Of a stretch of DNA of 63,092 bases, positions 27,901 to 58,250 are shown in pieces (within the stretch, counting starts at the first letter, position 1; each line of letters begins with the position of its first letter). The notes beneath the pieces are model-generated. The model did no database searches. It saw nothing but the letters and a program-made list of their open reading frames with translations, and had not been told where the DNA came from. Source of the stretch: a virus. Taxonomy: Duplodnaviria > Caudoviricetes. The stretch lies in IMG/VR virus record IMGVR_UViG_3300005805_000087, positions 1 to 63,092 of that record; one strand, written 5' to 3'. The position numbers and the translations under genes are program-made.

Positions 27901-28128
27901 TCTTCTCTACCTAAGCCTGACATTTTTATTATGGACGAAGGCTTTGGTACTTTAGATGATGCTGCTGTAGAAGCCTGCAATAGGCTATTGACATCCTTAA
28001 AGAGATATTTCAGAGTCGTTGTTGTTATTACACATGTCGATGGAATAAAAGATATAGCTGATTATATGTTGGAAATTACAAAAAACGAAAAAGATTCTAA
28101 GGTCACTTATGGTATCGATGATGAGTGA
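24964..28128 (+). CDS. Fused SbcD(Mre11/gp47)-SbcC(Rad50/gp46) nuclease-ATPase
   Basis: Phosphoesterase motifs ADVH, GGDIFH, GNHD, GDIH; then Walker A GPNRIGKS, Q-loop SAQGE, coiled coil, signature CSGME, Walker B IMDEGFGTLD, ITH, all in one frame. Confidence 0.9.
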   Translation: MLRIAHTADVHWRGLSRHDEYREVFTAFIEDCKKNKVDHIFIGGDIFHTKTTGISPEYIEQLTWWLESMAKVAPVHLTLGNHDGNLVNLSRQDAVSPIVQALDNPNIHLYKKSGVYEFHPGYTWCVYSLFDEEGWPQVVPQSDKVNIACYHGPVQGSVTEVGWEMEGTKVEFFKDYPFVLLGDIHQLQHLGYRDTKDGSKKPWISYPGTPIQQNYAEDLNHGYLLWEIESIDDWNVEFKKLPNPKPYVTLQWNGTAEDLISSASQHPDGSRFRIRSTDALGQKDFKAISDVLKGRKQATEITFKSDFVVDKSVVKTGTATLGKADLRNPDVLLKLIKDYYSTAQITQHEWDTVADNVKSYLSTVTATEETTRNSKWSLRYLEFDNMFAYGPGNAINFDKLNGIVGVFGPNRIGKSSIVGTLMYSLFNATDRGPMKNIHICNIRKPYCSSKAIINHDGTDYVIERQTTKSESKKGVWSATTALNVFRIRDDGEADDLAGEQRTDTEKVIRSLIGNQEDFMMTSLSAQGETNQFISQGSTKRRAVLSRFLDLDIFDRMHEIANKELSGLKSQLKSYPDRDWESILEQEKLSIDSASNEIENIINKIKEKQLKLSELQHELAKHKDITPVTKAQVESFAKQVATLEQKCKSCSEEISRLESEIEEHNKKLETIKEVKSENDILILRARDAAYKSLESSLASLKHVYEKENTQLLQYKKSLKILDEVPCGDDYPTCKFIKDAHINKGKLEDQEAKTKLAQEKLAEAEAAFVELEKENIPARLEKMERLLELESKMLLEVSRKETELAKVKSSCGAQSTDLTAAKERLALLEEALKNEENAEAVSIKSNIDEISKAIDDLTTEKLETATKKGRLTATLEKLKEEKSLRDALLEKMKVHELVTTAFSKKGIPLIITKSQLPLINAEIAKILHGIVDFTIELENDEGSDSSEIYINYGDSRRVIELCSGMEKTISALAIRVAMINVSSLPKPDIFIMDEGFGTLDDAAVEACNRLLTSLKRYFRVVVVITHVDGIKDIADYMLEITKNEKDSKVTYGIDDE

Positions 28129-38248: not shown

Positions 38249-40138
38249 ATGAAACAGTTTACATTAGAACATTTAGCACAGGGCATTAAGGACCGCCACG
38301 TCGGTGCCGAGCGTGCCCGTTTAACAGAGAAGTGGAGCCGCACAGGTCTCCTCCGTGGCCTCGATGGCACACGTCGCGAGATGATGTCTCAGCTTCTCGA
38401 AAACCAGGCAGCACAGGTCCTCAAGGAGAGCAATGCTCTCTCCACAGGCGCAGGCAGCCTTGTTGGCTCTGGTCAAATCCAGGGTTTCAGCAACATCGCA
38501 TTCCCAATCGTTCGCCGCGTGTTCGGTGGCCTCGTTGCCAACGAGCTCGTCTCGATTCAGCCAATGTCTCTTCCATCAGGTCTCATCTTCTACTTGGATT
38601 ACACCTATGGAACACAGCGCAACATCGATGGCGACACAACAGGCGAAGTTTACAAGAAGGGTGACTCCATCTACAACAACCCACGTGGTAAGGGCGTCCA
38701 ATCCGGATCTCTTGCAACAGGTGGTATGTACGACCTCGTCGGCACTGGTTACTCTCGCGTCACAGGTTCAACAACATCGTTGAATCTTGCTGCAGCGACA
38801 GTGTACTCCGGTTCCTATGGTGGCGTTGATGGAACAACATGGACCGCAAACCTTCTCCTCGATACAGGCGCGGAGTTCAGCGGCTCTAATGCTCGTTTCT
38901 GCGACTTCGATAGCCAAGTTGAAACCGCACTCACAAACAACGAGTACGACGTTCTCTTCGTGTATGTCCCAACATCTGCAATCACAGCTGCAATCACAGG
39001 CGCGGACCTCACATCAGTTGATCAGATGGCACTCTTCTCTGGTTCCTATGCTCAGCATGGCGACGGTACCTGGGGCGAGGCATACCAAGGTGGCAACAAG
39101 GTTATCAACCTTCGTCGCCTCAACAAGCGTGGTAACTTCAGTCCAACAGTTGCTCCATACTTCACACCAGACGCGCTCAACGGTACACACGTTCAGTTCG
39201 TGTTGAAGACCTCAGGACAAGTTGGTTCACCATCTGCCTCTGGTAAGCTCTCTGTTGCAGTTTCGACGAGCCTCTCTGTTGACTCCGCTTCCGGTGCGAC
39301 AGTCACAGTGCCTTCGTTCGAGTCTGACTTCGGAACAACACCACGTCCAGTTATCCCAGAGATCGACATCAAGATCGAGTCCATTGCCATTACGGCAGAG
39401 ACCCGCAAGCTCCGCGCACGCTGGTCTCCAGAGCTCGCACAAGACCTCAACGCATACCACTCGATGGATGCTGAGGTTGAGCTCACCTCGATCCTCTCCG
39501 AGCAGATCGCTCTCGAGATCGATCGCGAGATCCTCAATGACCTCGTGACACAGGCAAACGGCGCCAACTACTACTGGAGCCGTGCACCAGGCAAGTTCGT
39601 CAACAAGACAACAGGCTCACCTGTGACATTGGCCTCTTCCCTCTCAATCGGCCCAGCCTTCACCGGTACGGTCCGTGAGTGGTACGAGACACTCATCGAG
39701 ACAATCATTGATGTCGCCAACACCATCCACCGCAAGACACTCCGTGGCTCAGCAAACTTCCTCGTTTGCGGTCCGGACGTCGCAACCATCCTCGAGGCTT
39801 CCGTGCTCTACAAGCCAAAGTTCTCCATGGACGGCGAGGGACAGGTTGGTTCGCCATTCACCATCGGTGCAGAGGCGATCGGTACACTCAGCAACCGCTT
39901 CACAGTCTACAAGGATCCTTACTTCGTTCGTAACAAGATCCTCGTCGGCTACAAGGGCGGCAGCTACCTCGAGACAGGCTACGTCTATGCTCCATACGTG
40001 CCACTCATCGTGACACCAACAATCTTCGCACCAGAAGACTTCACACCACGTAAGGGCGTGATGACTCGCTACGGTAAGAAGACTGTTCGTTCCGACTTCT
40101 ACGGAACAGTCACCTGCCTCGACATGAACATCATCTGA
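38249..40138 (+). CDS. Major capsid protein (T4 gp23-like)
   Basis: LLENQ, PIVRRVF, VSIQPMSLPSGLIFY, ETRKLRARWSPELAQDLNAYH, EIDREI, YAPYVPL, FTPRKGVMTRYG; strong codon bias; AGGAG RBS. Confidence 0.97.
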   Translation: MKQFTLEHLAQGIKDRHVGAERARLTEKWSRTGLLRGLDGTRREMMSQLLENQAAQVLKESNALSTGAGSLVGSGQIQGFSNIAFPIVRRVFGGLVANELVSIQPMSLPSGLIFYLDYTYGTQRNIDGDTTGEVYKKGDSIYNNPRGKGVQSGSLATGGMYDLVGTGYSRVTGSTTSLNLAAATVYSGSYGGVDGTTWTANLLLDTGAEFSGSNARFCDFDSQVETALTNNEYDVLFVYVPTSAITAAITGADLTSVDQMALFSGSYAQHGDGTWGEAYQGGNKVINLRRLNKRGNFSPTVAPYFTPDALNGTHVQFVLKTSGQVGSPSASGKLSVAVSTSLSVDSASGATVTVPSFESDFGTTPRPVIPEIDIKIESIAITAETRKLRARWSPELAQDLNAYHSMDAEVELTSILSEQIALEIDREILNDLVTQANGANYYWSRAPGKFVNKTTGSPVTLASSLSIGPAFTGTVREWYETLIETIIDVANTIHRKTLRGSANFLVCGPDVATILEASVLYKPKFSMDGEGQVGSPFTIGAEAIGTLSNRFTVYKDPYFVRNKILVGYKGGSYLETGYVYAPYVPLIVTPTIFAPEDFTPRKGVMTRYGKKTVRSDFYGTVTCLDMNII

Positions 40139-40161
40139 TAATCTCAGATTAAGTGTTCTCT

Positions 40162-40197
40162 AGGAAGGCTCCCGAAAGGGGGCCTTCTTAGTTTTTA
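40162..40197 (+). terminator. Rho-independent terminator after the major capsid gene
   Basis: GGAAGGCTCCC-GAAA-GGGGGCCTTCT hairpin followed by a T-rich tract. Confidence 0.85.
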
Positions 40198-40287
40198 TGG
40201 TTTTATTTCTAAAATGTTGATATAATGTTCTTATGGTTTTATGGCCTTATATCTTAAGATTTTTTCTAAGGTCATGATGAGCAGACT

Positions 40288-40614
40288 ATGAGGAGGAGAA
40301 AGTATGGTCAACCAAAGCTATCTAAAGACCGTTGTGAGGTCTGTGGGTATGACCACCCGGCCGCTCTCAACATCCACCACATCATTCCTCGTTGCGATCC
40401 ACGGTGTTCTAACGACAACCACAACCTAGCCATCGTGTGTCATACGTGCCATGACCTGATTCACGTCGGTGAAATCATCATCATCGGAGTGTATCCCACC
40501 TCAGCCGGCCGCAAGTTGATGTGGTTTCAAAACGGCGATGAACCTCCGTTAGAGAAGGAATTTTGGAAGATCAAGGACAATCCTTTAGTCCTTCGCAAAA
40601 AAAATCAATTATGA
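40288..40614 (+). CDS. HNH endonuclease
   Basis: CEVCG...IHHIIP...NDNHNLAIVCHTCHDLIH. Confidence 0.85.
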   Translation: MRRRKYGQPKLSKDRCEVCGYDHPAALNIHHIIPRCDPRCSNDNHNLAIVCHTCHDLIHVGEIIIIGVYPTSAGRKLMWFQNGDEPPLEKEFWKIKDNPLVLRKKNQL

Positions 40615-40694
40615 TTAAAAGCGTTTGTGAAATAAATGTGCGCGTCGATTGTACGCTGTGTACTTTTTTTTAATCTGATGATATCTATTAATAT

Positions 40695-42182
40695 ATGGCA
40701 AGAAGCAACGTCATTAAACTTGGTTTGTTGATTGTTGGTGTTGCAGGTCTAACGACACTCGGTTGTGAAAGGCCTAATCCTTATAAGCTAAGTGGTGACA
40801 CGTCGGCCGTTTATGAAGATTGTCCGACACCATCAACGAATGGGTCCACTTCTTCAACTGTAAGTTCGACTGTAGGCTCGACTGTGGCAAGCACAACATC
40901 GGGTGGTGGCGAAGGTACAACCGTCGGTACGACCGGTCCATCGACATCGGTTTCGACTGGTTCAGGTAACCAACAACCGCAGATTGAATTAACCGAGCTC
41001 GATGAGCGTGAGTTAGATTATGGTGAGGCACTGCGCACAGCCAGCATTCTTCTCGTTGGAGATGCTCCAACAGTTGCTGAAATCTATGAGCTTGCTGACC
41101 TTCCTCCTGATATGCAGGATGAAAAGTATATCGAATTAATCGACAAGAAACTTGCAGACCCTCGTTTCGCTGCAACGCTCGTCGAATTCTTTAAGTACAC
41201 TTATAAAATGGGCGGAGCCTCTACAGTCATGGGAGAACCCAATCGTGATACGGCTCCTGTTTTCTCCGCAAGAACAGTGTATGAGGAGAAAGATTGGAGA
41301 AACATCCTGACACAGCAGACGAACACTTGCCCAACATTTAACGCTACTACGAACACGTTTAGTGATGGTAACTGTAATAACATGCCATCTTCGACCATGG
41401 CGTCTGGCATATTGACGGACCCTGGCGTTCATAGCCTCTACTTTGGTAACCTTGCGTTCCGTCGTAATCGTTTCTTCCATGAGACTTTCCTCTGCAAGTC
41501 TGGTAATGAGCAAGCAGGTGGTGAACCAACCGACGCGCCACCAACTGATGCTCCCTGTAATGGCGGAGGCTCTATTCCTGGATACAATAATAAATGGGCA
41601 GTTAGCGAAATCGCCGGAGCCTGCAACGGCGGTCGTGTAGATTTCCATGCCTACAACAACAGCAACGTCTGTGCAAACTGTCATTCAACGTGGAACCATC
41701 GCTCACCGCTCTTTGCGCAGTTCGATTCCCGCGGAATTTATCAGAGCCTTACTGCGGCCGGTGAATTCGCGGTATTTGTTCCAGTAAACGGTTCTCCGCG
41801 TGCCAAGATGAGCGATTGGCTCTGCGTCTCTCCTTCTTGTCCAAATGGTGGCAATAATAAACCAGCATGGAAGAAGACAATGAAGGTGAACGGTGTAGAA
41901 ACACCAGGTCTCGCAAACACCCCTGTCGCCTTGGGTCAAGTGATGGCGCAAGATGATGAAGTGATTGAATGCGCCGTAAAGCGAGTGTGGAATTACGCTA
42001 TGGGTCGTGCCGATATCACCGAGATTGGTGGACGTTCCTGGGTGAATCTTCCCGATCGCAAGGACAAGAATCCTGAGTTGGTGACAATGTCCAAGTTGAT
42101 TTCGCAGTTCAAGGGTAATGGTTACAACTTGAAGCAGGTACTTCGTACCATCCTACTTTCCGATGACTTTGTGAGGTTCTGA
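40695..42182 (+). CDS. Lipoprotein with heme-c-type CxxCH; DUF1588/DUF1585-like architecture
   Basis: Signal ending TTLGC; Ser/Thr/Gly linker; SGILT, FLC, CANCH..FAQFDSRG; C-terminus CAVKRVWNYAMGR...FKGNGYNLKQVLRTILLSDDF. Confidence 0.7.
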   Translation: MARSNVIKLGLLIVGVAGLTTLGCERPNPYKLSGDTSAVYEDCPTPSTNGSTSSTVSSTVGSTVASTTSGGGEGTTVGTTGPSTSVSTGSGNQQPQIELTELDERELDYGEALRTASILLVGDAPTVAEIYELADLPPDMQDEKYIELIDKKLADPRFAATLVEFFKYTYKMGGASTVMGEPNRDTAPVFSARTVYEEKDWRNILTQQTNTCPTFNATTNTFSDGNCNNMPSSTMASGILTDPGVHSLYFGNLAFRRNRFFHETFLCKSGNEQAGGEPTDAPPTDAPCNGGGSIPGYNNKWAVSEIAGACNGGRVDFHAYNNSNVCANCHSTWNHRSPLFAQFDSRGIYQSLTAAGEFAVFVPVNGSPRAKMSDWLCVSPSCPNGGNNKPAWKKTMKVNGVETPGLANTPVALGQVMAQDDEVIECAVKRVWNYAMGRADITEIGGRSWVNLPDRKDKNPELVTMSKLISQFKGNGYNLKQVLRTILLSDDFVRF

Positions 42183-42185
42183 GCC

Positions 42186-43241
42186 ATGCAGAAAAAAACT
42201 CTGAAAAAAGTCGGATTATCTACACTAGGAATTGTTGGATTGATTCTTGGGTTCAATGCATGTGGCGCAGAAGCCCCCGCAATTGGTGAAAATTATTGCC
42301 CAGACATCGAGGATTCAACTAGTCCTTCCGCTACTATCGGCGTGGTAGCTTCAAGCTCTTCTACGACGGGTGGCGGAGTTGGTGGTGCAAGTGGTAGTGC
42401 GACTGCTTCGACTGGTTCTGGTGAGGAAATGTCAACTGGTTCTGGAATGGAAGAGGAAGAACCTTTACCTGAGTATGATGTTCCTGCGTACGATGAGATC
42501 ATGTCACGTCTCCATAGCTGCCATAAATTAACATATGTGCAGTTAGGAAATTTCCTTCGTGCTCGCGGAGTTGCAATTCCACAAGGTGGTGTTTCCGACA
42601 TCCGTACGACGATGACGCCCGTTTTTGGTCAATCAGTAACGCTTGGTAGCATCTTCGGTGGCTCTGGTTCGGTATGCGAGATGGCCATTACCGAGTCGAA
42701 TGGCACCAATGATCCTATTTGCCCAATGGGCGAGGTTTGTTTTTGTAATCAAGATGACAAGCTTAACCAAGTCAACCGCAGCTGTTTGGATGTAGGTAAC
42801 AACTCTCCTGATGCGGCGGATGGATATTGTGTTTCGAAACCTTCGACTGCTGGGTATCTTTACTTCGCTGGCAAAGATTCATTAGGTGTGCCGAAGCAAG
42901 ATTCACGTCTTGGAGAGAAAGAAGAGCATTCTACAGCTTCTGCAATGAAGATGATGGATATCTTTATCCAATCCGCACCTCAAATCGTCGCAAACATTGG
43001 AGATCCGCAGAAGGCGCCAGCCTGCACGTTGAATGGTAAGAATTATCCAATGTTTGCAGGAGATAATACTTGCATCGAAGAATCTGTCAGCTGTTTGATT
43101 GGTACACCGGCTACCGATGATCACATGTTGCTTTGCAATTTGGTTCTTCAGAAAGCAAAGTCGGGTGATGCGACAGATATGATGAAGAAGAAAAACATGG
43201 CAGTTGCATTACTTCTTGCTGCTGCTCATTCGTGTCAGTGA
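42186..43241 (+). CDS. Cys-rich lipoprotein
   Basis: Signal ending LGFNAC; Ser/Thr/Gly linker; many Cys; starts 3 nt after the previous gene. Confidence 0.7.
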   Translation: MQKKTLKKVGLSTLGIVGLILGFNACGAEAPAIGENYCPDIEDSTSPSATIGVVASSSSTTGGGVGGASGSATASTGSGEEMSTGSGMEEEEPLPEYDVPAYDEIMSRLHSCHKLTYVQLGNFLRARGVAIPQGGVSDIRTTMTPVFGQSVTLGSIFGGSGSVCEMAITESNGTNDPICPMGEVCFCNQDDKLNQVNRSCLDVGNNSPDAADGYCVSKPSTAGYLYFAGKDSLGVPKQDSRLGEKEEHSTASAMKMMDIFIQSAPQIVANIGDPQKAPACTLNGKNYPMFAGDNTCIEESVSCLIGTPATDDHMLLCNLVLQKAKSGDATDMMKKKNMAVALLLAAAHSCQ

Positions 43242-43253
43242 TGGAGGGACGAG

Positions 43254-44855
43254 ATGGCTAACTGGAAATTAAAAGAACTTCAAGATGAACGCCGCCGAAC
43301 ATTCCTCAAAATGTGCACGGTGACAGCTGCTGCCATTGGAATTTCCCGCACGGATTTGTTAAACTTTCTTTCTGATGAAGGTGGTAATGGTTTAGCAGAA
43401 GCAGCGTCCACGACTTATGGTCGTTCACTTCTCGTCCCATCACCAAACGGCGTCCAAGCGTGGTTCCAAGAATTATGGCCAGTTCCGGACGTCGCGTTGA
43501 AGGCGACCGCGAACGCCAACGTTTCAGGCCTATCCGGTCAGTTCGGTGGATTCTCTTCTTATCTCTATACTTCACAGTACGGTTACAATCCAGCCAACGG
43601 ATACCGTGGAACATATACACAAGGTAAAGGAAACCCTCTTCCTTCATTGCCAATGGGCGTGAAGAGTTGGGATGGTGGAGACCGTTCTTTCTTCTACGGA
43701 CCCCATGCACCATGGTTCGACCACAACCTCGGTCTTCCAAAGTATCCTGTCACAGCCATCATGTCTGGTAAAGATGAAACCCATACTGAGTTCCCAATTT
43801 CTCAAGTCGCTCTTTCTGGAAATTCAACAATGCAAGCTGCTTTAGCTTCATTAGGCGCAGCTGGTTCTTCAGCTGTCGTACCAGTTCTTGGTATCGACCC
43901 CGTCAAATACGGTAGAGCCCCTGGTGCACCTGAAGTTGCGACTGTTCCTTCATCGGCAGGTATGATTGACCTCTTTAACAGCGCCGCAAGCCAATACACA
44001 CTGCAGAGTAAAGTCGACCAAGAACTCTTCGACACTTACTACAAGGCCCTTGTTGGTCTTCGTAAGTCTTCAAGCCGTTCAACATGGTTACCACAAATGA
44101 GTGTGACAAAGAACGCAGCTCGTATCATCGGATTGAACTTCGCGTCTCAATTGACTCCAACAAGCGCAGATCTTGCAAGCTTCGGAATCCAAGAAATGGT
44201 TGATAGCTTGAATTCAAATTCAATGTATTTGACTCCTGCTCAACGCAAAGGATTAGAAGAGTTTGGTAGAACATTAATCGTTGTTGCGAAGGCGTTCACT
44301 TTGGGTCTCAGCAAGACGGCAATTGTAGCTTTGTCTCCTGGTCCAACCAGCGATACTACCTGGACAGATCCACATGTGACATTCGATAGCCAAACCTTAA
44401 TGAACCAAGGTCGTAATACTACGAAGCATTTAGGCAAGGTTCTAGATGGCTTCTACAATTATCTCTCTCAGCAAGTGGACCCAGAAAGCCCAACAGAGAA
44501 GTTAGATGAGACAACCACTTTCGTTGCATATGGTGATACACCACATACACCTCTTATGGGTAACACGTGGCCCGATGCAACGCCCGATGCTTGCAACTGG
44601 ATCTACGTGATGGACCCGAAGGCAAACATCAAGAATGGCTGGTTCGGTCATGTTTATGCAAACAGAGTCAACAATCGTAACGCAGTTGGATTCAACCCAT
44701 TGACCGGTCAGGATGATGCAACAAAGACTTCTGAACAGATGTCTTCTTTCGCTTCTGCTGCTGCTGTTTATGCCACGTCCCAGGGAGATAGCAATAAGAC
44801 TGCAGAATATGGTGTCTCTCCAAATGTGATACCATCTCTCGTAAACTTTAAGTAA
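43254..44855 (+). CDS. Tat-exported protein, DUF1501/DUF1552-like
   Basis: Twin-arginine ERRRTFLK followed by a hydrophobic stretch and LAEA; WTDPH; LDETTTFVAYGDTPHTP; GGAGGGA RBS. Confidence 0.65.
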   Translation: MANWKLKELQDERRRTFLKMCTVTAAAIGISRTDLLNFLSDEGGNGLAEAASTTYGRSLLVPSPNGVQAWFQELWPVPDVALKATANANVSGLSGQFGGFSSYLYTSQYGYNPANGYRGTYTQGKGNPLPSLPMGVKSWDGGDRSFFYGPHAPWFDHNLGLPKYPVTAIMSGKDETHTEFPISQVALSGNSTMQAALASLGAAGSSAVVPVLGIDPVKYGRAPGAPEVATVPSSAGMIDLFNSAASQYTLQSKVDQELFDTYYKALVGLRKSSSRSTWLPQMSVTKNAARIIGLNFASQLTPTSADLASFGIQEMVDSLNSNSMYLTPAQRKGLEEFGRTLIVVAKAFTLGLSKTAIVALSPGPTSDTTWTDPHVTFDSQTLMNQGRNTTKHLGKVLDGFYNYLSQQVDPESPTEKLDETTTFVAYGDTPHTPLMGNTWPDATPDACNWIYVMDPKANIKNGWFGHVYANRVNNRNAVGFNPLTGQDDATKTSEQMSSFASAAAVYATSQGDSNKTAEYGVSPNVIPSLVNFK

Positions 44856-44868
44856 TCGATATATTTAA
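44853..44868 (+). promoter_or_regulatory. Putative late promoter (ATANTTA core)
   Basis: TAATCGATATATTTAA is identical at 44853 and 46203, each just before a leader-bearing ORF. Confidence 0.6.
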
Positions 44869-44873
44869 AGGCC

Positions 44874-45077
44874 ATGAAGATAACAGAGTCGCAGTTAAGA
44901 GAAATGATTCTCTCGGAGTTGATGGCCGACGACGAAAAGAAGCTCAAGGATTCTATTGTTAATAATCTTATGAGCCTGTTCTATCGTCATGAGATGGAAC
45001 CTGAAGAAGCTGCGAATGAGTTAGCATCCCTTGCTCGTAAAGAAATCGAATCTATTCGAGCAAAACAACCAGCTTGA
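44874..45077 (+). CDS. Small protein with shared leader
   Basis: MKITESQLREMILSEL. Confidence 0.7.
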   Translation: MKITESQLREMILSELMADDEKKLKDSIVNNLMSLFYRHEMEPEEAANELASLARKEIESIRAKQPA

Positions 45078-45096
45078 TCTGTATAAGAGGTAGAAT

Positions 45097-46122
45097 ATGA
45101 AATTGACCGAGTCACAACTTCGTAAAATCATCAGTAACGAGATTAAATCAGTTCTTCGTGAGTCAAACAATTCTTCACACAGCAAGTTAGCATCATTAAT
45201 TTTTGAAGAAGATGAAAAACCAGCTGATAAAGAAAAGTCGGTTAGCAAATCTACAGGTGAGTATGTCTCTTTTGATGACAAAACTAATATTAAAGATGTT
45301 CCTGCTGAGGAAATATACAAGCAATTGGTGAGTAAAGATCCCAACGCACCAGTATTTGCTGCAATAAAATCTGGTTTGGATTGGACTAATGTCGATCCTG
45401 TAAAGTGTGCTGAGCATTTTGAGGGAATGGGAGAAAAAACTTTCGTTGCAAGAATGAAAGATTTACAAGGAAAAATTCCAGAAACAGGTTTGCCAAAAGA
45501 TAAAATGCCTTTCCTTCCTGGTCCTAAAGACGCAAAGGGCTCTGTTGAAGATTTAAAGGATATTTTGACGCCAGGCGGTGAATATAACGTCGACTTTGAA
45601 TCGAAACAAAGAAGCGGTTCTTCATTGAGCGAAGCGGCTATAATTCATCGCTGGGGTAAATTAGCAGGCATTCTTACTGAGAAGGTAGATCCACCCGCGC
45701 CAAATGAGCTCAAAGGTTCAGGCGATGAAGAATCTGAAAAATATCTCAAAAGCGGCCTTGAAGATGGAAATGAAAAAGATGATGCTGTGCCTTTTGATGC
45801 TCCTGGAACGGTTAAAGCCAGTGCCGCTGTTCCAACACAATCAAACATTCTAATCGGTAAAACTTTGGGATTTGCTATTCCAAAGGAAGCCGGAGGTGGT
45901 GGAATCGCAGGCGGCGACCTCGGCGCGTACGCCAGCACAGACAATGAAATTTTGGATGGCCATCACCGCTGGGCTGCGACAATGATTTCAAATCCCAACG
46001 CTGATATGGGTACATTCATGAACATCGATTTAGCGAAGGTCGGTGGTGGTGACAAGACGACAGGTTTGAAACAATTGACTGCCATTGGTAATGCTTTGGG
46101 TAACCCTACCAAGACAAAGTGA
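45097..46122 (+). CDS. Leader-bearing protein with C-terminal ParB/sulfiredoxin-like domain
   Basis: MKLTESQLRKIISNEI leader; internal RWGKLAGI; PTQS...EILDGHHRWAA. Confidence 0.7.
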   Translation: MKLTESQLRKIISNEIKSVLRESNNSSHSKLASLIFEEDEKPADKEKSVSKSTGEYVSFDDKTNIKDVPAEEIYKQLVSKDPNAPVFAAIKSGLDWTNVDPVKCAEHFEGMGEKTFVARMKDLQGKIPETGLPKDKMPFLPGPKDAKGSVEDLKDILTPGGEYNVDFESKQRSGSSLSEAAIIHRWGKLAGILTEKVDPPAPNELKGSGDEESEKYLKSGLEDGNEKDDAVPFDAPGTVKASAAVPTQSNILIGKTLGFAIPKEAGGGGIAGGDLGAYASTDNEILDGHHRWAATMISNPNADMGTFMNIDLAKVGGGDKTTGLKQLTAIGNALGNPTKTK

Positions 46123-46142
46123 CTTGAGCTTATTGCTTGCTT

Positions 46143-46182
46143 AAAGGAGAAGGAGGCTAGAAAAATGCCTCCTTTTTCTTTT
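46143..46182 (+). terminator. Rho-independent terminator
   Basis: AAGGAGGC-loop-GCCTCCTT followed by TTTCTTTT. Confidence 0.75.
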
Positions 46183-46202
46183 ATGGTTTTTAGTTTCTGG
46201 TT

Positions 46203-46225: not shown

Positions 46226-46546
46226 ATGAGAATCACAGAATCCCAACTTCGTAAGATCATTAGAGAAGAGCTCACTTCAGCTGAAGGAACTTCTAAGTTG
46301 ACAGATCAGCAAAAGAAACAGCTGAATGATCTATCTAAGAGCGCACCAAGCAACCTCGCCAGTTTCTCAAAGAATTTAAAAGTTCTTGCAGCGATTATCG
46401 ATGATATTGATCCAAAAGCTGCGGCGATCGACGCCACTCAATTAAAGCAATACTGGACTCAAACGATGGCGATTGTTTCAAGCATGATGAGCGAAGAAAA
46501 AACCTCAACATCAGATACCGCGAAGGTTACGAAAGCCTTAGGTTGA
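46226..46546 (+). CDS. Small protein with shared leader
   Basis: MRITESQLRKIIREEL. Confidence 0.7.
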   Translation: MRITESQLRKIIREELTSAEGTSKLTDQQKKQLNDLSKSAPSNLASFSKNLKVLAAIIDDIDPKAAAIDATQLKQYWTQTMAIVSSMMSEEKTSTSDTAKVTKALG

Positions 46547-46549
46547 TTT

Positions 46550-46840
46550 ATGAAGATATCTGAATCTAGATTACGTCAGATTATCTCTGAGGAGATTGCA
46601 GCGTTTCAAGAGCGTGAGATCGTCAACGTCCATTCAGGTCACACTGAGACCGCACACAGCAAACTCGTTGTTAATCTGATCAAAGGTAACCAAACACTAC
46701 TCGATGCTTTGAAAAACATTAAGTCGCAACAGGATCTTACTGCAGTCATCGAGGCGATTAACGATCTGACAGGTGTGATGGATCGACCTGTTATGATGAG
46801 TTCATTGGCGAAAGTTACGTCTCACCAGAAGAAGGGCTGA
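46550..46840 (+). CDS. Small protein with shared leader
   Basis: MKISESRLRQIISEEI. Confidence 0.7.
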   Translation: MKISESRLRQIISEEIAAFQEREIVNVHSGHTETAHSKLVVNLIKGNQTLLDALKNIKSQQDLTAVIEAINDLTGVMDRPVMMSSLAKVTSHQKKG

Positions 46841-51940: not shown

Positions 51941-52016
51941 CTAAAATACATTATTGATTGATTTATCGATTTTTGCGAGATATTTATAGCTTGATCGACC
52001 GTGAAGGAGAATGGTA

Positions 52017-55000
52017 ATGGCTGAGCAAGTTTTTAGATCTCCCAATTTTTATGAACGTGAAATTGACCTTTCCGCCCCTGCAGTTGGTGGCCCAATAGGT
52101 ACACCAGCAGGTGTTGTTGGACCAGCGAATAAAGGTCCTGCATTCGTGCCAGTAACAGTTGCAAATTTCAATGAGTTCGTTACAGCATTCGGTAACCTCG
52201 ACCCCAAGTACTTTGGACCTTACGCGGTGAACGAGTTCCTCAAGAACCGTACGTCTTTAACGTATCTTCGTGTTCTTGGCGCTGGTGCAAATACAACAAT
52301 TGCACACTTTGATGATACAGCGACAAAGGGAACAGTTAACAACGCAGGCTTCAAGCTTCCTGGCACGGTCGCTGTAGCTGATACACGCCATACCGAAGTT
52401 GTTCAATTCATTGCTGCTCAACACACGCTGTCTGCCAATGAGGCTTACGGTATGCCAATGTTTAGCGATAATAACTCCTTCCCTGGTGTCACAGCTGGTA
52501 GTGAAGTTAACATTATCCGCGGTATGGTCATGGTTCCTTCAACAGCACGTCTCTTTGTGCTAAATGGAACCGAGGCTGTCCCGGCCGGTGCTTCTATCGC
52601 AACTCTCGATGACGAGGCTCAAGCTAAAAACATCAACAGTAAGCCAAAGGTTAAGATTCTTATTTCTTCTTCCTTAGGTGCAACATTTGCAAATGATGAA
52701 GGAAAAATAGGCGTCAAAATCTTGACAGCTTCTTTCGACCCAACTGCCGATGATTATTTCGGAAAGGTTCTCAACACAGACCCAGACAAGTTCTACACGT
52801 ACCAACACTATCTTGCCGCTGACTTTGCTGTCGACGCTCAGGTCGCTGAAGTTGCAGAAGATAACTACATCGCGATATTGTCGGGCTCCGGATTGACAGA
52901 TAATTCCTCGGGTGATGCAACACTCACCTATCGTCAAATCTTTGGTTCCTATAACACACGCTTCAAGGCGCCACAGACTCCAATGTTCATCTCGCAACCG
53001 TTCGGTGCGACGGAGTATGATCTCTTTAAGATTGAAGCTCTTGATGATGGTGAGTATGCAAACTCGCTCTACAAGATCTCAATTGCGAACGTTAAAGCTT
53101 CAGCGGACAATACCAACAAGTATGGTACGTTCAACCTCCAGATTCGCGATTGGAGTGATTCCGATATAAGCCCAGTTATTATTGAAGAGTTCGTCAACTG
53201 TACTCTTGATCCTGATTCGGACAACTATGTCGCAAAGCTTGTCGGTGATCGCAAGGTTTATTACCATTTCGATGCAATCGACCCACGCGAGCGTCGCCTT
53301 GTCGCAACAGGTAAGTACTCGAACAACTCCAAGTATGTTCGCGTAATCATGTCTGAGTTAGTCGAGAAGAAGCTTGTTCCAGACACAGCTCTTCCATTCG
53401 GCTTCCATGGACCATCTTTGCTCAAGACTAACAACAACGTTAACGCTCTTGCTCAAATTGCAATTGGATCCGGTCGCCTCGGCGCAACCGGTCTCACTGG
53501 CACACACTTCCTTTCTGGTTCTATTCTTCCTCCAATCCCATACCGTTATAAGGTTACGCGAGGAGAAGTTTCGACAACAAGCACAATTGCCGGTGCACCA
53601 GGCTCAAAGGAAGTTACACTTCCATCCTTGTACTGGGGTGTTAAGTTTGAAAGAAACGCCACAACTCTTGCTAACGATGTTCTTAATCCAAACGTTATCA
53701 GCGAAAAGAACAAGCTTATTGGTTCATTAACAAAGTTCATGGGCATTGAGAAGCTTGACGCTCTTCACACTGGGTCGAACATCGATCTCTTCAATAGCAA
53801 CAAGTTCAGCCTTGCCAAGGTTGCATTAAGCAACACTTCAACAACCGACGTAACAGGCTCAGCTTCTGCTCATATGAAGGAAGCAGCATACATTAGAAAT
53901 GCAACGCCTGATTCAACAGACTACACAGTTTCTGATGGTACTGTGACCAACCGTGTGACATTAGCAACACTTCTTGCGAAGACAAGCGCTGCAAACTACA
54001 ACCGCTTCGCACCATTCGCAAAGTTCACCACCTTCATGTATGGCGGTTTTGATGGTGTCAACTATCTAGATCGCGATGCTCGCCGTCTCAATGATAAGTC
54101 TGTTTCTTTCGATGCAGATACTCTTTCCACAGGAGGCGCTGCAGCAAGCTACGTTCCATCGGGCTTCTCAACAGCAGTCAATGGCACCGGCAAGGATAAC
54201 AATGGCGTTGCATCTTATAATGCAGCAGTAGATATCATGACGGATCCATACTCCGTCGGTATTAACATCCTTAACGTCCCAGGCGTTCGTGAACCATATA
54301 TCAACGATCTAACATCTAAGAAAGTACAAGCCTACGGTCTTGCACTCCACTTAATGGATATTCCAGCATATAATGACGATGGATATCGTCTCTATGATGA
54401 CTCGACAGAGAAACCATCAGTTGCTGAGACGGTGGACGCATTCGACGCTAGAGCAATCGATAACAACTACGTTTCTACGTATTTCCCAGATGTCTACGTC
54501 GATGATCAAACGAATGTCCGTAGAGTAAAGGTTCCTGCCTCAGTTGCAGCCCTTGGAGCGCTCGGTTTCAATGACCGTGTGTCTTATCCATGGTTTGCTC
54601 CTGCTGGTTTCAACCGCGCAGCTCTCGACTTCGTGACCAACGTTGCGGTTCGTCTTAACGTCGGCGATCGTGATCGTCTCTATGATTCACGTATCAACCC
54701 AATCGCGACATTCCCACGCCTCGGCTTCGTGATCTACGGTCAAAAGACCTTGCAGGTCTCCAAGTCAGCGCTTGATCGCGTTAACGTTCGTCGCCTCCTC
54801 CTCGAGGTTAAGCGAATCGTGATTGGAATCGCACAGCGCATTGTCTTCGAACAAAACACCCCTGCAGTCCGCAATCGCTTCGTCTCAGACGCAGTTTTCC
54901 AGCTTGGTTTAATCCAAACACAAGCCGGTCTTGAGGCCTTCCAGGTTGTGATGAACGAGACAAACAACACCCAGGAGGATATCGACCTCAACCGCCTCAA

Positions 55001-55088
55001 CGGTAGAATCGTCGTTGTCCCAACTCGCTCGATCGAGTACATCGCAATCGACTTTATCGTAACTAACGCGGGCGTACAGTTCGTGTGA
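52017..55088 (+). CDS. Tail sheath protein 1 (gp18-like)
   Basis: SPNFYEREID, GPAFVP, PWFAPAGFNR, INPIATFP, GQKT, LDRVNVRRLL, FEQN, PTRSIEYIAIDF. Confidence 0.93.
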   Translation: MAEQVFRSPNFYEREIDLSAPAVGGPIGTPAGVVGPANKGPAFVPVTVANFNEFVTAFGNLDPKYFGPYAVNEFLKNRTSLTYLRVLGAGANTTIAHFDDTATKGTVNNAGFKLPGTVAVADTRHTEVVQFIAAQHTLSANEAYGMPMFSDNNSFPGVTAGSEVNIIRGMVMVPSTARLFVLNGTEAVPAGASIATLDDEAQAKNINSKPKVKILISSSLGATFANDEGKIGVKILTASFDPTADDYFGKVLNTDPDKFYTYQHYLAADFAVDAQVAEVAEDNYIAILSGSGLTDNSSGDATLTYRQIFGSYNTRFKAPQTPMFISQPFGATEYDLFKIEALDDGEYANSLYKISIANVKASADNTNKYGTFNLQIRDWSDSDISPVIIEEFVNCTLDPDSDNYVAKLVGDRKVYYHFDAIDPRERRLVATGKYSNNSKYVRVIMSELVEKKLVPDTALPFGFHGPSLLKTNNNVNALAQIAIGSGRLGATGLTGTHFLSGSILPPIPYRYKVTRGEVSTTSTIAGAPGSKEVTLPSLYWGVKFERNATTLANDVLNPNVISEKNKLIGSLTKFMGIEKLDALHTGSNIDLFNSNKFSLAKVALSNTSTTDVTGSASAHMKEAAYIRNATPDSTDYTVSDGTVTNRVTLATLLAKTSAANYNRFAPFAKFTTFMYGGFDGVNYLDRDARRLNDKSVSFDADTLSTGGAAASYVPSGFSTAVNGTGKDNNGVASYNAAVDIMTDPYSVGINILNVPGVREPYINDLTSKKVQAYGLALHLMDIPAYNDDGYRLYDDSTEKPSVAETVDAFDARAIDNNYVSTYFPDVYVDDQTNVRRVKVPASVAALGALGFNDRVSYPWFAPAGFNRAALDFVTNVAVRLNVGDRDRLYDSRINPIATFPRLGFVIYGQKTLQVSKSALDRVNVRRLLLEVKRIVIGIAQRIVFEQNTPAVRNRFVSDAVFQLGLIQTQAGLEAFQVVMNETNNTQEDIDLNRLNGRIVVVPTRSIEYIAIDFIVTNAGVQFV

Positions 55089-55142: not shown

Positions 55143-58100
55143 ATGGCACAGCTAAAACTCGGCGCAGCAGGCGTAACAGCAAACGAAATCGATATTTCAG
55201 GACCAGTATCTCCAGAACCTGTAGGCGTTCCTGCAGGTATCATTGGTACAGCAAAACAGGGACCGGCATTCGTGCCAATCACTGTTGGTCGTCTTTCGGA
55301 CTTCGAAGCAAAGTTCGGAACAGTCGATAGCAAGTACTTTGGACCAATCGCGGTTCTTGAGTGGTTGCGTAATGCACAGGCTGTAACCTATCTTCGTGTT
55401 CTTGGCGTCGGCGACGGTCTTGAGCGTCAAAGCTCAACTGCGACATATCCTGGATCGGTCACAAACTCAGGTTTCGTTGTTGGTGAGCAACAGCCTTCAG
55501 GAACAGTCGGCGCCCTTGCTCCAAATCCATATGCGAATACAAATGGACAACCAGGAAGAACATACTTTCTCGGTTGCTACATGTCAGAATCTGTTGGTTC
55601 AACTTACTTTAGTGACGCAGGATTGCAGGCTGCTGGTTCCAACACAGCAACACCAATCATCCGTGGCGTTGTTATGGCAGCATCCGGTGTCCTTCTCGCA
55701 CTCTCTTCTTCGTTGGCAGGTGCGGTTTCTTCAGCTCCTAGTTCGACGCAGATCGGTAATGTGGAGAATAGTCCAAAAGGTGCGACAGTTGGATCTGTTG
55801 TCCTCACCCAGAACTCCGTTTCTAAGCAGGACTTCGTCCTTCTTCTTAATGGCCACAAGGGTCTTGACGTAAATAGCCCCAATGTTATTACGGCTTCTTT
55901 TGATCCATCTTCTAACAACTACTTCGCCAATGTCCTTAATAGAGATCCTCTCAAGCTCCAAGAAAAAGGATATTACCTCTATGCAAACTGGGACGTTCAT
56001 ACGGCCCTCGGCACTGTAACAGGCTCAGGAATTCTCTCGAGTTCCTTCGGCGCAGGTGGCACAATTGGTAAGACGGGAGAGGAACCTTCAGCATTCCTCG
56101 TAACTTCTTCTCTTGCTCGCAACGTCGGTTCAACAACTGTTCCAAACTTTGAGAACTTTGAAGATCGCTTTGGTTATGCGAAGTCTCCATGGGTTATCTC
56201 TCAAAAGTTCGGTGGTAAGCCTGTCAACCTTTTCAAGTTCCATGCCCGTGATGCCGGTCAGGATATCTCCAACCTCTACAAGATTTCCATCGAAAATATC
56301 ACTCCTTCTATCGATCCAATGAACCGATATGGTTCATTCACGGTCAAGGTTAGAAAGTGGAGCGACCGCGATTCGACGCAAACCCTCATCGCGACAGGCG
56401 AAAGCTTCGTTTGCGATCTCAACCCAACATCCGGCCGCTACATTGCGAAGGTCATTGGCGATCTAAACGCTTACTTCGACTTCGATCGTGCGATTGAAGA
56501 ACAAAAGCTCGTCATCGAAGGTGCGTATTCAAACAACTCCAACTACATTCGCGTTGAAGTTCATCCAGACGTTGAGAATGGATTCGTTGATCCAACGGCT
56601 CTTCCAATGGGCGTTCGTGGTGTAGCGCATCTCGTGACGTCGGGTTCTGCTACGTTCGCTGCGTTGCCAGAAAACACGTTCGCAAATAACAATATCGCAC
56701 AATCTGGTGCGACACTCGACGTTAACGTCCTTCGTAAGTCCGTGACACCACCGGTTCCATTCCGCAAGAAGGTTACTGATGGCACCGTGGATTCTGCTGT
56801 TGAGACTGCAAACACCAAGTACTACTGGGGTGTTCAGTTCGAGCAAGTTGAGCTTATTACAAAGCCAAACGCTTCGGTCCTCGCAAACAAGGGCATTGAA
56901 TCCTTTGCTAAGTACTTCCCAGACTTTGCAACTGTTCAGAAGCCTGTCCTCGTTGGTGATAACGCTGGTGCTGCTGATACAGCTGCTAACGGCATCATTG
57001 ATTCAGATAGATTCTGTAACAATATCTTTAGCCTTGAGCACATCCAAGTTGTTACAGGTTCCACAACCCGTGCGGATGTCCTTGAGTGGGATGAAGCCGT
57101 CTACGTTCGTAATGGTGTAATCGCTTCGAACGAAACTAACAAGACCCGCGCATTCGGAACACAAGATCTTGCGGACACAGCGAATCGCCAGTTCGCTAAG
57201 TTCACGTTCTTCCTCCAGGGCGGATTCGATGGTGTTAACATCTTCGACAAGGATGAGGCAGAACTCACAAACAACGCAGTATCTTCAGATATGGTATTTG
57301 GCAATGGCCGTCTCCTCAATGACGGACCAAACGTCAAAGCGTACACTAAGGCAGTGGATATCATGAAGAACACGACAAATATCGATGTTCAACTCCTTGC
57401 TATCCCAGGCCTCCGTCATCCAATAGTAACAGATTATGCTACTGTTGCGACGGAAGAAAGATTCGACGCTCTCTATCTCATGGATATCGAGCAGTACACT
57501 GAAGACGGAACTGCAGCTGAAAATGAAGTTCGTTTGGATACGCAGATTGCATCTGTTTCCAACACGGTCAATAGCTTCAAGGATCGTAACCTCGATTCTT
57601 CCTTCGCCGCGGCCTACTTCCCAGACGTTCTCTACGCAGCTCCCGATGGCAACAACGTCTTTGTTCCACCATCAGTGCTCGTTCTCGGCGCTCTTTCGTT
57701 GAACGATGCAGTGGGTCATCCATGGTTCGCACCAGCTGGTTTCACCCGCGGCGCCCTTCCACAGGCTGCTCTTGAGGCTCGCGTCAGACTCAAGGATGAG
57801 GACCTTGATTCACTCTATGATGAGCGTATCAACCCACTCATTGCTTTCGTCGGCGCTCCAAAGTCCGGTTTGAATCCATCTTCCGGGCTCGTGGTCTGGG
57901 GCCAAAAAACGCTCCAGCTCGCCGCATCGGCTCTTGATAGAGTGAACGTTCGTCGTCTCCTCATCGAGATTCGTCGTCAGGTTCGCGAGATTGCTCAAAC
58001 AATCATCTTCGAACAAAATCGCGAAGCAACCCTCGCTCGTTTCTCTGCTGCCGTTACCCCACGTCTCCAGAGAATTCAAGCTCTCGCAGGTCTCGAGAGA

Positions 58101-58250
58101 TTCCGCGTCATCATCGATTCGTCCACGACGACGCAGAACGACATCGAGAACAACACTGTCCGTGGCAAGATCTTCGTCCAACCAACGAAGAGCATCGAGT
58201 TCGTCAGCCTCGACTTCGTCGTCGCCAACAACCTCAACCAGGTGCAGTGA
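55143..58250 (+). CDS. Tail sheath protein 2 (gp18-like)
   Basis: GPAFVP, PWFAPAGFTRG, INPL, WGQKT, LDRVNVRRLL, FEQN, PTKSIEFVSLDF. Confidence 0.93.
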   Translation: MAQLKLGAAGVTANEIDISGPVSPEPVGVPAGIIGTAKQGPAFVPITVGRLSDFEAKFGTVDSKYFGPIAVLEWLRNAQAVTYLRVLGVGDGLERQSSTATYPGSVTNSGFVVGEQQPSGTVGALAPNPYANTNGQPGRTYFLGCYMSESVGSTYFSDAGLQAAGSNTATPIIRGVVMAASGVLLALSSSLAGAVSSAPSSTQIGNVENSPKGATVGSVVLTQNSVSKQDFVLLLNGHKGLDVNSPNVITASFDPSSNNYFANVLNRDPLKLQEKGYYLYANWDVHTALGTVTGSGILSSSFGAGGTIGKTGEEPSAFLVTSSLARNVGSTTVPNFENFEDRFGYAKSPWVISQKFGGKPVNLFKFHARDAGQDISNLYKISIENITPSIDPMNRYGSFTVKVRKWSDRDSTQTLIATGESFVCDLNPTSGRYIAKVIGDLNAYFDFDRAIEEQKLVIEGAYSNNSNYIRVEVHPDVENGFVDPTALPMGVRGVAHLVTSGSATFAALPENTFANNNIAQSGATLDVNVLRKSVTPPVPFRKKVTDGTVDSAVETANTKYYWGVQFEQVELITKPNASVLANKGIESFAKYFPDFATVQKPVLVGDNAGAADTAANGIIDSDRFCNNIFSLEHIQVVTGSTTRADVLEWDEAVYVRNGVIASNETNKTRAFGTQDLADTANRQFAKFTFFLQGGFDGVNIFDKDEAELTNNAVSSDMVFGNGRLLNDGPNVKAYTKAVDIMKNTTNIDVQLLAIPGLRHPIVTDYATVATEERFDALYLMDIEQYTEDGTAAENEVRLDTQIASVSNTVNSFKDRNLDSSFAAAYFPDVLYAAPDGNNVFVPPSVLVLGALSLNDAVGHPWFAPAGFTRGALPQAALEARVRLKDEDLDSLYDERINPLIAFVGAPKSGLNPSSGLVVWGQKTLQLAASALDRVNVRRLLIEIRRQVREIAQTIIFEQNREATLARFSAAVTPRLQRIQALAGLERFRVIIDSSTTTQNDIENNTVRGKIFVQPTKSIEFVSLDFVVANNLNQVQ

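Follow-up and report, generated by a model that had tools for sequence, protein, structure and literature searches.

Predicted export from the cytoplasm, possibly in the service of a phage: a host-derived three-gene cassette in a jumbo T4-like freshwater myovirus and its possible role

How did a T4-like phage come to carry, a short way behind its major capsid gene, three adjacent genes whose products all appear destined to leave the cytoplasm of the infected cell, and what would it gain from them? The question is raised by a stretch of 63,092 nucleotides (nt), hereafter the window, which is the linear IMG/VR virus record IMGVR_UViG_3300005805_000087 and to which all position numbers refer. A reading made from the letters of this DNA and nothing else (the sequence-only reading) had picked out the three genes, here called g1, g2 and g3 and together the cassette, as a captured cell-envelope system consisting of a lipoprotein with a haem-c motif, a Cys-rich lipoprotein and a substrate of the twin-arginine translocation (Tat) pathway. 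Our analysis inclines us, with somewhat better than even confidence, to see in the cassette a host-derived, membrane-tethered module of periplasmic enzymes that benefits the phage. Its chemistry is guesswork, which cannot be said of where it came from, of its export or of its retention.

Only part of the genome of a jumbo T4-like freshwater myovirus is covered by the window, its completeness being estimated by CheckV at 19%. It is assigned to the T4-like myoviruses because genes for a terminase, a portal, a prohead protease, two sheath proteins and a gp23 capsid protein share it, and its clade is taken to be one of jumbo phages because a relative, G009 (the record of locus L218), is complete at 369,475 bp with direct terminal repeats; the capsid protein of G009 is 71% identical to that of the window, and it has no g3 homologue. 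Among 50,697 GenBank phage records no match was found to positions 38249-46200 by blastn, or to g3 by tblastn, PHROGs holds no family for g1, g2 or g3, and the Tat signal was the only NCBIfam match to the cassette proteins. The sequence-only reading had known of no description of such a system in a phage, and our literature search likewise found no published account of such a set of PSCyt/DUF, Tat, lipoprotein and cytochrome genes in one. Other auxiliary genes are named, in the parts bearing on this question, by a preprint of 2026 that treats 790 CRISPR-linked myxophages, and the words cytochrome, lipoprotein, Polyangiaceae and Straboviridae do not occur in its main text (10.64898/2026.09.14.751636).

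The source of the cassette became apparent from its homologues, many of which are 60-91% identical to g1-g3 and lie on contigs of up to 273 kb, with those in metagenome-assembled genomes (MAGs) of Myxococcota at 40-77% identity. For the bacterial comparison one genome per species was taken and the best 80 of 154 g3 relatives were kept; going by their records, all of these 80 are either Myxococcota or MAGs of Deltaproteobacteria, with Polyangiaceae, Kofleriaceae, Haliangiales, Chondromyces, Polyangium and Minicystis represented. The bacterial three-gene synteny that the sequence-only reading had supposed was indeed there: g1, g2 and g3 follow one another on one strand in 72 of the 80 Myxococcota loci, six more loci are on contigs that end before g1, and two (L019 and L021) have room upstream yet no g1 match. 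Directly upstream of g1, 59 of the 80 bacterial loci have a further lipoprotein gene, g0, whose product of approximately 400-460 amino acids (aa) has CGSCH and CxxxCH motifs and belongs to no Pfam family (e.g., L044, 4447-5823). This gene is absent from the lake clade that is nearest to the phage, and it was found neither in the window (E>=1) nor in the viral loci (0/14 and 0/22).

A maximum-likelihood tree of g3, rooted at the midpoint, was made from 91 rows, four loci with a short or interrupted translation having been set aside. In it the 15 phage rows group as a single clade (support of 99 in the Shimodaira-Hasegawa-like approximate likelihood-ratio test, SH-aLRT) that is nested within rows from lake-water Polyangiaceae/Myxococcota, its sister being L017 (97) and the next branches being successive lake clades. 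When 151 genomes from the family of the candidate host were searched at the DNA level, the cassette proved to be 65-67% identical in nucleotides to lake genomes. Base composition sets the two groups apart: the GC content of the locus is 63-74% in the bacteria and 38-46% in the first 14 phage loci, and in the window itself the cassette genes have 46-49%, close to the 42% of the phage, versus 61-72% in their bacterial homologues. Derivation of the cassette from planktonic lake Polyangiaceae (Myxococcota) is well supported by these sequence comparisons, and the features by which host-derived auxiliary genes are recognised, i.e., nesting in host sequences, phage composition and purifying selection, are all present.

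The evidence for purifying selection comes from ratios of nonsynonymous to synonymous substitution rates (dN/dS), which were taken only from pairs of loci with an unsaturated synonymous distance, synonymous sites being saturated in comparisons with the window. The pair L001-L002 gave 0.068 for g1, 0.080 for g2 and 0.033 for g3, and the pair L006-L007 gave 0.056 for g1 and 0.037 for g3. The intact frames that had been noted in the window extend to its relatives, no frame being broken in any viral locus with the complete trio. The phage lineage inherited the cassette vertically and under strong purifying selection.

That the cassette truly belongs to a phage genome was a necessary concern, and the sequence-only reading had itself raised the prospect of a chimeric assembly. 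The junction between capsid gene and cassette recurs across samples in numerous IMG/VR contigs, a few as long as 187-211 kb, and wherever the upstream flank is present in the IMG/VR loci it has the capsid gene, usually a gene for an HNH endonuclease, and then g1-g2-g3. Contigs from three lake-water sequencing runs also bridge the junctions with no joints, one over 39898-41855 (the capsid gene end, the HNH gene and g1) without differences and one over 40109-43118 (the HNH gene and g1, into g2); these runs are of one study, may include the source sample and have a word depth of mostly 7-10. The HNH-g1 junction is also spanned, by a related sequence, in a run that belongs to a different study. 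Because the run contigs bridge the junctions and many IMG/VR contigs agree with them, a chimera is excluded. The description of the genes as captured and retained thus rests on several legs: the conserved order in Myxococcota, the nested phage clade, the shift in GC, purifying selection and the same junctions across assemblies.

Searched with the g3 alignment, IMG/VR yielded 36 loci, of which 33 are close to the window (79-87% identity) and three, L137-L139, are distant (33-34%). An example of this second version (version B, the window having version A) is L139, on a viral contig of 200 kb whose capsid protein is 81% identical to that of the window. Its trio lies 3' of the capsid gene, between it and an HNH gene, and encodes g1' (388 aa, with CANCH), g2' (241 aa) and g3' (459 aa, with the RR pair), each 32-34% identical to its counterpart in the window; its GC content of 43% is phage-like. 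In a g3 tree of 105 rows (the 91 earlier ones, 11 of 19 newly found close viral loci and the three distant ones), the second version groups with the other deep clade of bacteria, beyond a branch whose support is 100. A tree constrained to keep all 29 phage rows together is worse by 453.5 units of log-likelihood (p = 5.3e-10 in the approximately unbiased, AU, test), although the group was chosen after inspection of the tree, which formally weakens the test. A single phage origin of both versions was rejected on this result, and from the sequences a related phage acquired the distant version independently. Two separate acquisitions of different versions argue that the cassette pays for the phage.

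It is nevertheless an accessory of these phages, since the complete 369-kb relative is without the trio. Related capsid proteins are encoded by 337 IMG/VR stretches, from which the best 80 capsid-gene relatives were taken; 30 of these have at least 7.5 kb downstream of the gene, and there 10 carry version A, one carries version B and 19 carry neither. Presence follows capsid identity, with a cassette in 7/8 relatives at 80% or above, in 4/13 at 75-79% and in 0/9 at 70-74%. Five large capsid relatives, the complete 369,475-bp genome among them, had no g3 anywhere in their records, and the same g3 model found its match in 5/5 bacterial genomes.

What the three proteins might do has to be read from their own features. 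At its N-terminus the product of g1 has a signal peptide that runs up to a lipobox, the Cys of which (Cys24) is invariant in all 16 aligned homologues, and each of the 16 satisfies the lipobox rule (a PROSITE-type pattern, applied to both g1 and g2). The tether that follows is rich in Ser, Thr and Gly, with 38 of the 56 residues at aa 45-100 being one of these. In the AlphaFold2 (AF2) model, which has a predicted local distance difference test score (pLDDT) of 68.8, residues 1-96 are below 50, i.e., disordered, and are followed by a mostly helical domain. Among its 12 Cys residues are those of exactly one CxxCH, and this motif is kept in 104/104 phage and bacterial rows that cover the region, with NH coming next in 101 of them. 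The lipobox, the tether and the single CANCH of the sequence-only reading were all confirmed in this way, and of the end that it called DUF1588/DUF1585-like one half stood: g1 passes the Pfam model PF07624 (PSD2/DUF1585; 27.7 bits vs a cut-off of 25.8, E 2.2e-6, best stretch aa 408-438), which precomputed annotation also places on many phage and bacterial homologues, but at 13.9 bits it is below the cut-off of 27 for PF07627 (PSCyt3/DUF1588). It is also below the cut-offs for PF07583 (PSCyt2/DUF1549; 15.5 bits at aa 106-167 vs 29.8) and PF07587 (PSD1/DUF1553; 11.7 vs 28.5). More distant bacterial g1 homologues carry PF07583 in the precomputed annotation, and the relation of g1 to DUF1549 would appear to hold at the family level only. 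A fold search with the g1 model found no solved chain above Z 3.5 and allowed no fold to be named; around the CxxCH the pLDDT is 44-65, and no cytochrome-c fold matched above that same Z. Its alignment profile had one match among PDB sequences, a low-complexity one that is not credible.

The many Cys residues claimed for g2 are there, 14 in all, behind a signal-like N-terminus and within a protein that has a tether similar to that of g1. Cys26 and 12 further Cys are invariant in 16/16 aligned homologues and the lipobox rule fits 13 of the 16, and the lipobox claimed for g2 was sustained in part, by the invariant Cys26 but not by the strict rule in the window protein itself. No Pfam, PHROG or NCBIfam match was found, and Pfam searches of the 16 homologues gave no real domain but only low-complexity matches to New_glue. 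What nearly all Myxococcota loci have in common with g2 is its C-terminal domain of approximately 134 residues; within the last 135 aa there are five Cys in 89 of 103 rows, and most rows end in H[STA]C[EQ]. Structural rows of a protein atlas had offered g2 as a relative of PSD1/DUF1553, a candidate that was dropped with TM scores of 0.34-0.37, too weak to be of use.

The Tat signal of g3 was borne out by the family model TIGR01409 and by the conservation of R14 and R15 in 105/105 rows; the Pfam TAT_signal model matches 9/16 homologues. With lipoprotein signals on g1 and g2 and a Tat signal on g3, all invariant, the claim that the proteins act outside the cytoplasm is upheld at the level of their signals, and a structural role in the virion, which the position of the genes might suggest, was rejected because all three proteins have export signals.

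Apart from the Tat signal, no Pfam family matched g3 at E<=1 in the window protein or in 15 homologues, and its alignment profile had no match among PDB sequences. Its AF2 model (pLDDT 71.8, predicted template modelling score 0.77) was more forthcoming. In a VIA-align structural search all 50 rows shown are chains of the alkaline-phosphatase superfamily, with Z 7.8-11.8, and include sulphatases, phosphodiesterases, alkaline phosphatases and transferases of phosphoethanolamine or glycerol phosphate. The best match is 7pth_A (Z 11.8, root-mean-square deviation 4.4, 247 residues aligned), and the alignment to the superfamily spans model residues 52-533 at a sequence identity of 5-11%. A Foldseek search of the PDB placed the same superfamily on top, with a best E of 0.075 and none <=0.001. 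On the strength of the model, g3 is predicted to have an alkaline-phosphatase-superfamily core fold. Six residues (H177, D372, H374, D428, D441 and N448) are identical in 105/105 rows, both phage versions and the bacteria included, and this His/Asp/Asn set could bind metal.

The sequence-only reading had described g3 as DUF1501/DUF1552-like, and here the family models did not go along with it. Neither PF07394 (DUF1501; E<=1) nor PF07586 (DUF1552/HXXSHH) matched the window protein or the 15 homologues. In three genomes that hold g3 homologues the former found 8, 6 and 1 other matches, and in three Myxococcota genomes the latter found 8, 9 and 1, never the g3 loci. A comparison by hhalign of g3 with a DUF1501 alignment built from Myxococcota matches gave a probability of 3.2%, with a motif-level alignment that is sensible (DPH with DTH, GDTPHTP with SDFGRTP); that with a DUF1552 alignment gave 43% over 47 columns, which are the Tat signal and the first strand only (RSLLVPSPNG against KRFxVFYxPNG). 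As a lead only, the named clusters nearest to g3 in language-model features (score 0.96, 196 shared features) carry DUF1501, present on 42% of their members. The relation to either family would be remote or merely one of analogy. Among 1.84 billion proteins the g3 profile found 345 representatives, and g3 therefore stands for a separate, small family, whose kinship with DUF1501 is one of fold and perhaps, at a distance, of sequence; DUF1501 itself is placed by Pfam in the alkaline-phosphatase clan. Ten proteins of 397-873 aa match mainly the C-terminal part of the profile, nine of them having no Pfam family and one having RCC1 repeats.

Whether the three products would work together was approached by prediction of a complex of g3 (residues 55-533) and g1 (102-495) with the C-terminal domain of g2 as the scored partner, all from self-made alignments. 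The interface score ipSAE was 0.54, 0.47 and 0.46 (median 0.47) against 0.00 for the best control, a result graded as weak support. In the calibration of the score the pass mark was reached by 58/80 solved complexes and 2/110 mismatched pairs, and passes at <=0.60 comprised 7 of the 80 solved complexes and both passing mismatches. The three runs share at least 81% of contacts, with a partner pLDDT of at least 71. When g3 was replaced and g1 kept the score fell to 0.00, and the predicted contact of the g2 domain is therefore with g3. For the word complex in the sequence-only reading there is thus a faintly positive computational result. Its other word, redox, has the invariant CxxCH as its sole basis, and the hydrolase- or transferase-type fold of the exported g3 speaks against it.

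With these pieces a mechanism can be proposed for the infected cell. Both g1 and g2 would be exported by the Sec pathway, lipidated and held on flexible S/T/G tethers, g1 receiving haem from the cytochrome-c maturation system of the host; g3 would fold and take up metal in the cytoplasm and then cross by Tat, and the three would assemble into a membrane-tethered periplasmic complex. Catalysis in it would fall to g3, the substrate being an ester of phosphate or sulphate or some related group, with g2 docked on g3 and g1 a haem-bearing accessory with a redox or substrate-handling part. The machinery this calls for is plausible in the candidate hosts, TatC and cytochrome-c assembly proteins being encoded in 4/4 Polyangiaceae genomes tested. 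The lake genomes nearest to the phage genes (G004-G006, of L015-L017) are small for the family at 4.6-5.2 Mb and have 3-4 g3-family matches each, versus 2 each in G001 and G002, of 11.5 and 16 Mb. The phage copy would supplement these host paralogues and keep a limiting envelope function running during infection. Scavenging of nutrients from organic esters would be the likeliest such function, and as guesses go it is the most economical.

A good number of points weigh against this account. At the canonical site of the nucleophile, after strand 1, neither Ser nor Thr nor Cys is conserved in g3 (position 65 varies among N, D and G), which puts in doubt whether it is a hydrolase. One would not expect a simple phosphatase or sulphatase to have a haem partner, and g0, which most bacterial cassettes have and the phage lacks, hints at electron transfer, not hydrolysis. 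Motifs are what speaks for the attachment of haem to g1, the lipidation of g1 and g2 and the passage of g3 through Tat, and one of them, the g2 lipobox FNAC of the window, fails the strict rule with an atypical Asn at -2. The predicted complex is a weak pass on self-made alignments. As regards the host, lake Polyangiaceae is a clue from the phylogeny of the cassette; the search of the 151 genomes returned the cassette itself and short low-complexity matches, with no convincing spacer-like match, and the phage GC content of 42% is far under the 63-70% of the candidate hosts. Finally, no promoter was identified for the cassette by a test of the motif ATATCTA, a sigma-70 scan or an alignment of related loci, and none of the listed sequencing runs that hold the stretch is recorded as RNA.

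Other functions for the same proteins must be weighed against that of an ester-processing enzyme module. The trio could modify or mask a surface or periplasmic structure and so protect the phage, either by blocking superinfection or by keeping progeny from sticking to the debris of lysed cells. Such remodelling has parallels in phage lipoproteins such as Llp of T5 and in the envelope-modifying transferases of the alkaline-phosphatase superfamily, and it suits a cassette that sits within a block of virion genes, in which two of three products are long-tethered lipoproteins and the structural neighbours of g3 include MCR-1/EptA, LtaS, BcsG, GacH and YejM/PbgA (Z 8.4-9.9). Surface remodelling is also put forward, for other genes, in part of the myxophage preprint (10.64898/2026.09.14.751636). 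We nonetheless think it unlikely here: g3 is without the membrane domain that known lipid-linked transferases use, its best structural matches are soluble sulphatases and phosphodiesterases, and the phage genes keep the invariant residues of the host family and sit in the host clade, which suggests that the host biochemical function was kept and not exchanged for a new anti-phage role. Rather improbable, too, is a periplasmic redox module, in which the haem of g1 would carry electrons (with g0 in bacteria) and g3 would be an oxidoreductase or cofactor subunit on an alkaline-phosphatase-like scaffold. No oxidoreductase is present among the 50 structural matches of g3 that are shown, every one a hydrolase, transferase or mutase; g0 is missing from the phage versions and from the bacteria closest to them; and no cytochrome fold was matched by the g1 model (best Z 3.5), which in itself decides little. 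Yet the CxxCH is invariant in 104/104 g1 rows, g0 with its CGSCH and CxxxCH is directly upstream in 59/80 bacterial loci and a few loci have a gene for a di-haem peroxidase-like protein nearby. Export by Tat is, moreover, typical of cofactor-bearing proteins. In a passage of a Rhodopirellula transcriptome paper, PSCyt/PSD domains are said, with reference to Studholme et al., to suggest "a function in redox reactions" (PMC2754498).

Two further explanations would deny the cassette any function for the phage. It could be a neutral passenger, i.e., selfish or hitch-hiking DNA moved along with the adjoining HNH homing endonuclease and of no benefit, and it is true that an HNH gene adjoins it in most loci (upstream in version A, downstream in version B) and that 19/30 capsid-gene relatives have no cassette at this site. 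A passenger would hardly be expected to show dN/dS of 0.03-0.08 in all three genes together with saturated synonymous sites, intact frames in the viral loci that hold the genes whole, a GC content fully shifted to that of the phage, and two independent acquisitions, and we consider this very improbable. An artefact, whether an assembly chimera or bacterial DNA misassigned to a virus, had in its favour that the closest named homologues are in bacterial MAGs. It is refuted, and we leave it next to no probability, by the same capsid-cassette junction in many IMG/VR contigs of different samples, by the run contigs across the junctions and by a GC content of 46-49% vs the bacterial 61-72%. A host-derived module of periplasmic enzymes is accordingly the reading that we carry forward.

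The surroundings of the cassette are collected in Table 1. The tight operon of the sequence-only reading is as described, with three same-strand open reading frames (ORFs) separated by 3 and 12 nt, but its position just downstream of the capsid gene had to be amended: a strong terminator-like hairpin, which to judge by its pattern would end the capsid transcript ahead of the HNH gene and cassette, and the HNH gene itself intervene, and the operon is therefore near the capsid gene and not immediately behind it. The ATATCTA ahead of g1, which had been taken for a late-type motif, was rejected as a late promoter, being neither enriched (9 copies in the window vs 6.9 expected, with 24/100 shuffles reaching at least 9) nor conserved (absent in 9/9 aligned related phage loci). 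Sites for sigma-70 were scarcer in the scan than in shuffled sequence.

Table 1. Features of the cassette and its surroundings in the window
Feature	Position	Strand	Basis or remark
Acidic ORF, 702 aa	36108-38216		Upstream of capsid gene, scaffold position
T4-type major capsid protein gp23 gene	38249..40138	+	Pfam PF07068 (Gp23) E 1.5e-77, phrog_138
Terminator-like hairpin	40160..40191	+	14-bp stem, 8 GC pairs, T-run; pattern match only
HNH endonuclease gene	40288..40614	+	Pfam PF01844 22.8 bits (cut-off 21.4), phrog_144 4e-8
ATATCTA	40681..40687	+	Named earlier as late-type motif; promoter role not supported
g1, 495 aa lipoprotein, PSCyt/PSD domain type, putative haem-c attachment motif	40695..42182	+	Pfam, alignments
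g1 signal peptide ending in lipobox Cys24	40695..40766	+	Alignment of 16
g1 S/T/G-rich tether, aa 44-100	40824..40994	+	Composition, low pLDDT
g1 CANCH, aa 326-330	41670..41684	+	Sole CxxCH in g1
g2, 351 aa Cys-rich lipoprotein, no known family	42186..43241	+	Alignment of 16
g2 conserved C-terminal domain, aa 218-351, ends HSCQ	42837..43238	+	
g3, 533 aa Tat-signal protein, predicted alkaline-phosphatase-superfamily fold	43254..44855	+	AF2 model, structural search
g3 twin-arginine motif RRTFLK, aa 14-19	43293..43310	+	TIGR01409 17.0 vs cut-off 16.7
g3 catalytic-type domain, conserved His/Asp/Asn cluster	43410..44852	+	105-row alignment

The HNH gene is upstream of g1 in 11/14 of the first viral loci and is missing in some, e.g., L009, although that locus has the flank sequence. 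In version A phages it stands before the cassette and in version B (L137-L139) after it. The site behind the capsid gene resembles an insertion hotspot. Some contigs of the lake-water runs X1-X3 share the end of the capsid gene and diverge right after its stop codon (40138), and related phages with another downstream region therefore co-occur.

Other genes in the window attracted attention in their own right. The acidic ORF ahead of the capsid gene has repeated units of the QDEAEEQDEA type and stretches rich in Lys and Gln, and its low-complexity DNA yields short spurious matches in many genomes. The four consecutive genes directly after the cassette (44874-45077, 45097-46122, 46226-46546 and 46550-46840) all share the N-terminal motif M-[KR]-[IL]-[TS]-E-S-[QR]-L-R-x-[IM]-I, a fifth copy of which is in the related phage L139 (5335-5553); the 341-aa member, the one that was scanned, had no family match. 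The motif is reminiscent of the capsid-targeting sequence that the internal head proteins of T4 have in common. Farther along there are two adjacent tail-sheath paralogues (52011-55088 and 55143-58250) of approximately 1030 aa each, about twice the length of the PHROG sheath profile that they matched. On the other side of the capsid gene, an ORF of 1054 aa (24964-28128) is an apparent fusion, in which aa 1-355 match the profile of an SbcD-like nuclease and aa 317-1051 that of an SbcC-like ATPase, separate families in the PHROG library.

What the cassette means depends in part on how far one is willing to extend the comparison with bacteria, in which modules that pair PSCyt/PSD proteins with a Tat-exported enzyme are very numerous (Planctomycetota, Verrucomicrobiota and Myxococcota). 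The function of this module class is given as still unknown in the relevant passages of two papers (PMC5615132, PMC2754498). A bolder proposal, which we hold to be possible but doubtful, is that the trio represents the class in a minimal and self-sufficient form, acquired at least twice by jumbo lake phages because it eases a bottleneck, of nutrients or of the envelope, in planktonic Polyangiaceae. The phage copy would then be a haem-assisted, lipid-tethered, ester-processing machine that reprograms the periplasm of the infected cell. If that were true, the small trio would be the most tractable entry to the function of the whole class. It is in any event a compact and well-conserved object for study of the class, and a multi-gene exported phage module, of a kind for which our search found no earlier report, that would rely on the host for lipoprotein processing, for cytochrome-c maturation and for Tat. 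It also provides a gene-based clue to a host, lake Polyangiaceae, for widespread uncultured jumbo T4-like phages, judging from the 337 IMG/VR relatives of the capsid protein.

Among known systems the nearest in plan are the pairs of PSCyt2/PSD1 (DUF1549/DUF1553) with a Tat-signal DUF1501 protein (PF07394) in Planctomycetota, Verrucomicrobiota and others, in which a protein of PSCyt/PSD type with a haem motif is likewise encoded beside a Tat-exported one. The cassette differs from them in that g3 does not match the DUF1501 model and is of a small family (345 representatives among the 1.84 billion proteins), the window g1 is below the DUF1549 cut-off, a third gene, g2, stands between, often with g0 upstream in bacteria, and it is here borne by a phage. 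The pairs of PSCyt3/PSD2 (DUF1588, DUF1585, DUF1592 and relatives) with DUF1552 are closer as regards g1, which passes DUF1585/PSD2 and whose CxxCH region aligns weakly with the DUF1588 end (13.9 bits); unlike in those pairs, g3 has no PF07586 match, its hhalign alignment covering 47 columns, and g1 is presumably far shorter than the typical multi-domain members. With the alkaline-phosphatase superfamily g3 would have the core fold in common, and its conserved His/Asp/Asn set could bind metal, but it has no conserved nucleophile at the canonical site and no sequence-level relation to any solved structure, and it has obligate lipoprotein neighbours. Lastly there are the auxiliary metabolic genes of phages, of which pstS and phoA of cyanophages are examples with extracytoplasmic functions, and the auxiliary genes reported for myxophages. 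Like them, the cassette is host-derived, under purifying selection, of phage composition, in a lytic-type genome and plausibly linked to nutrients; unlike them, it is a three-gene exported module and not a single gene of known function, and its phage rows fall in two separate bacterial clades.

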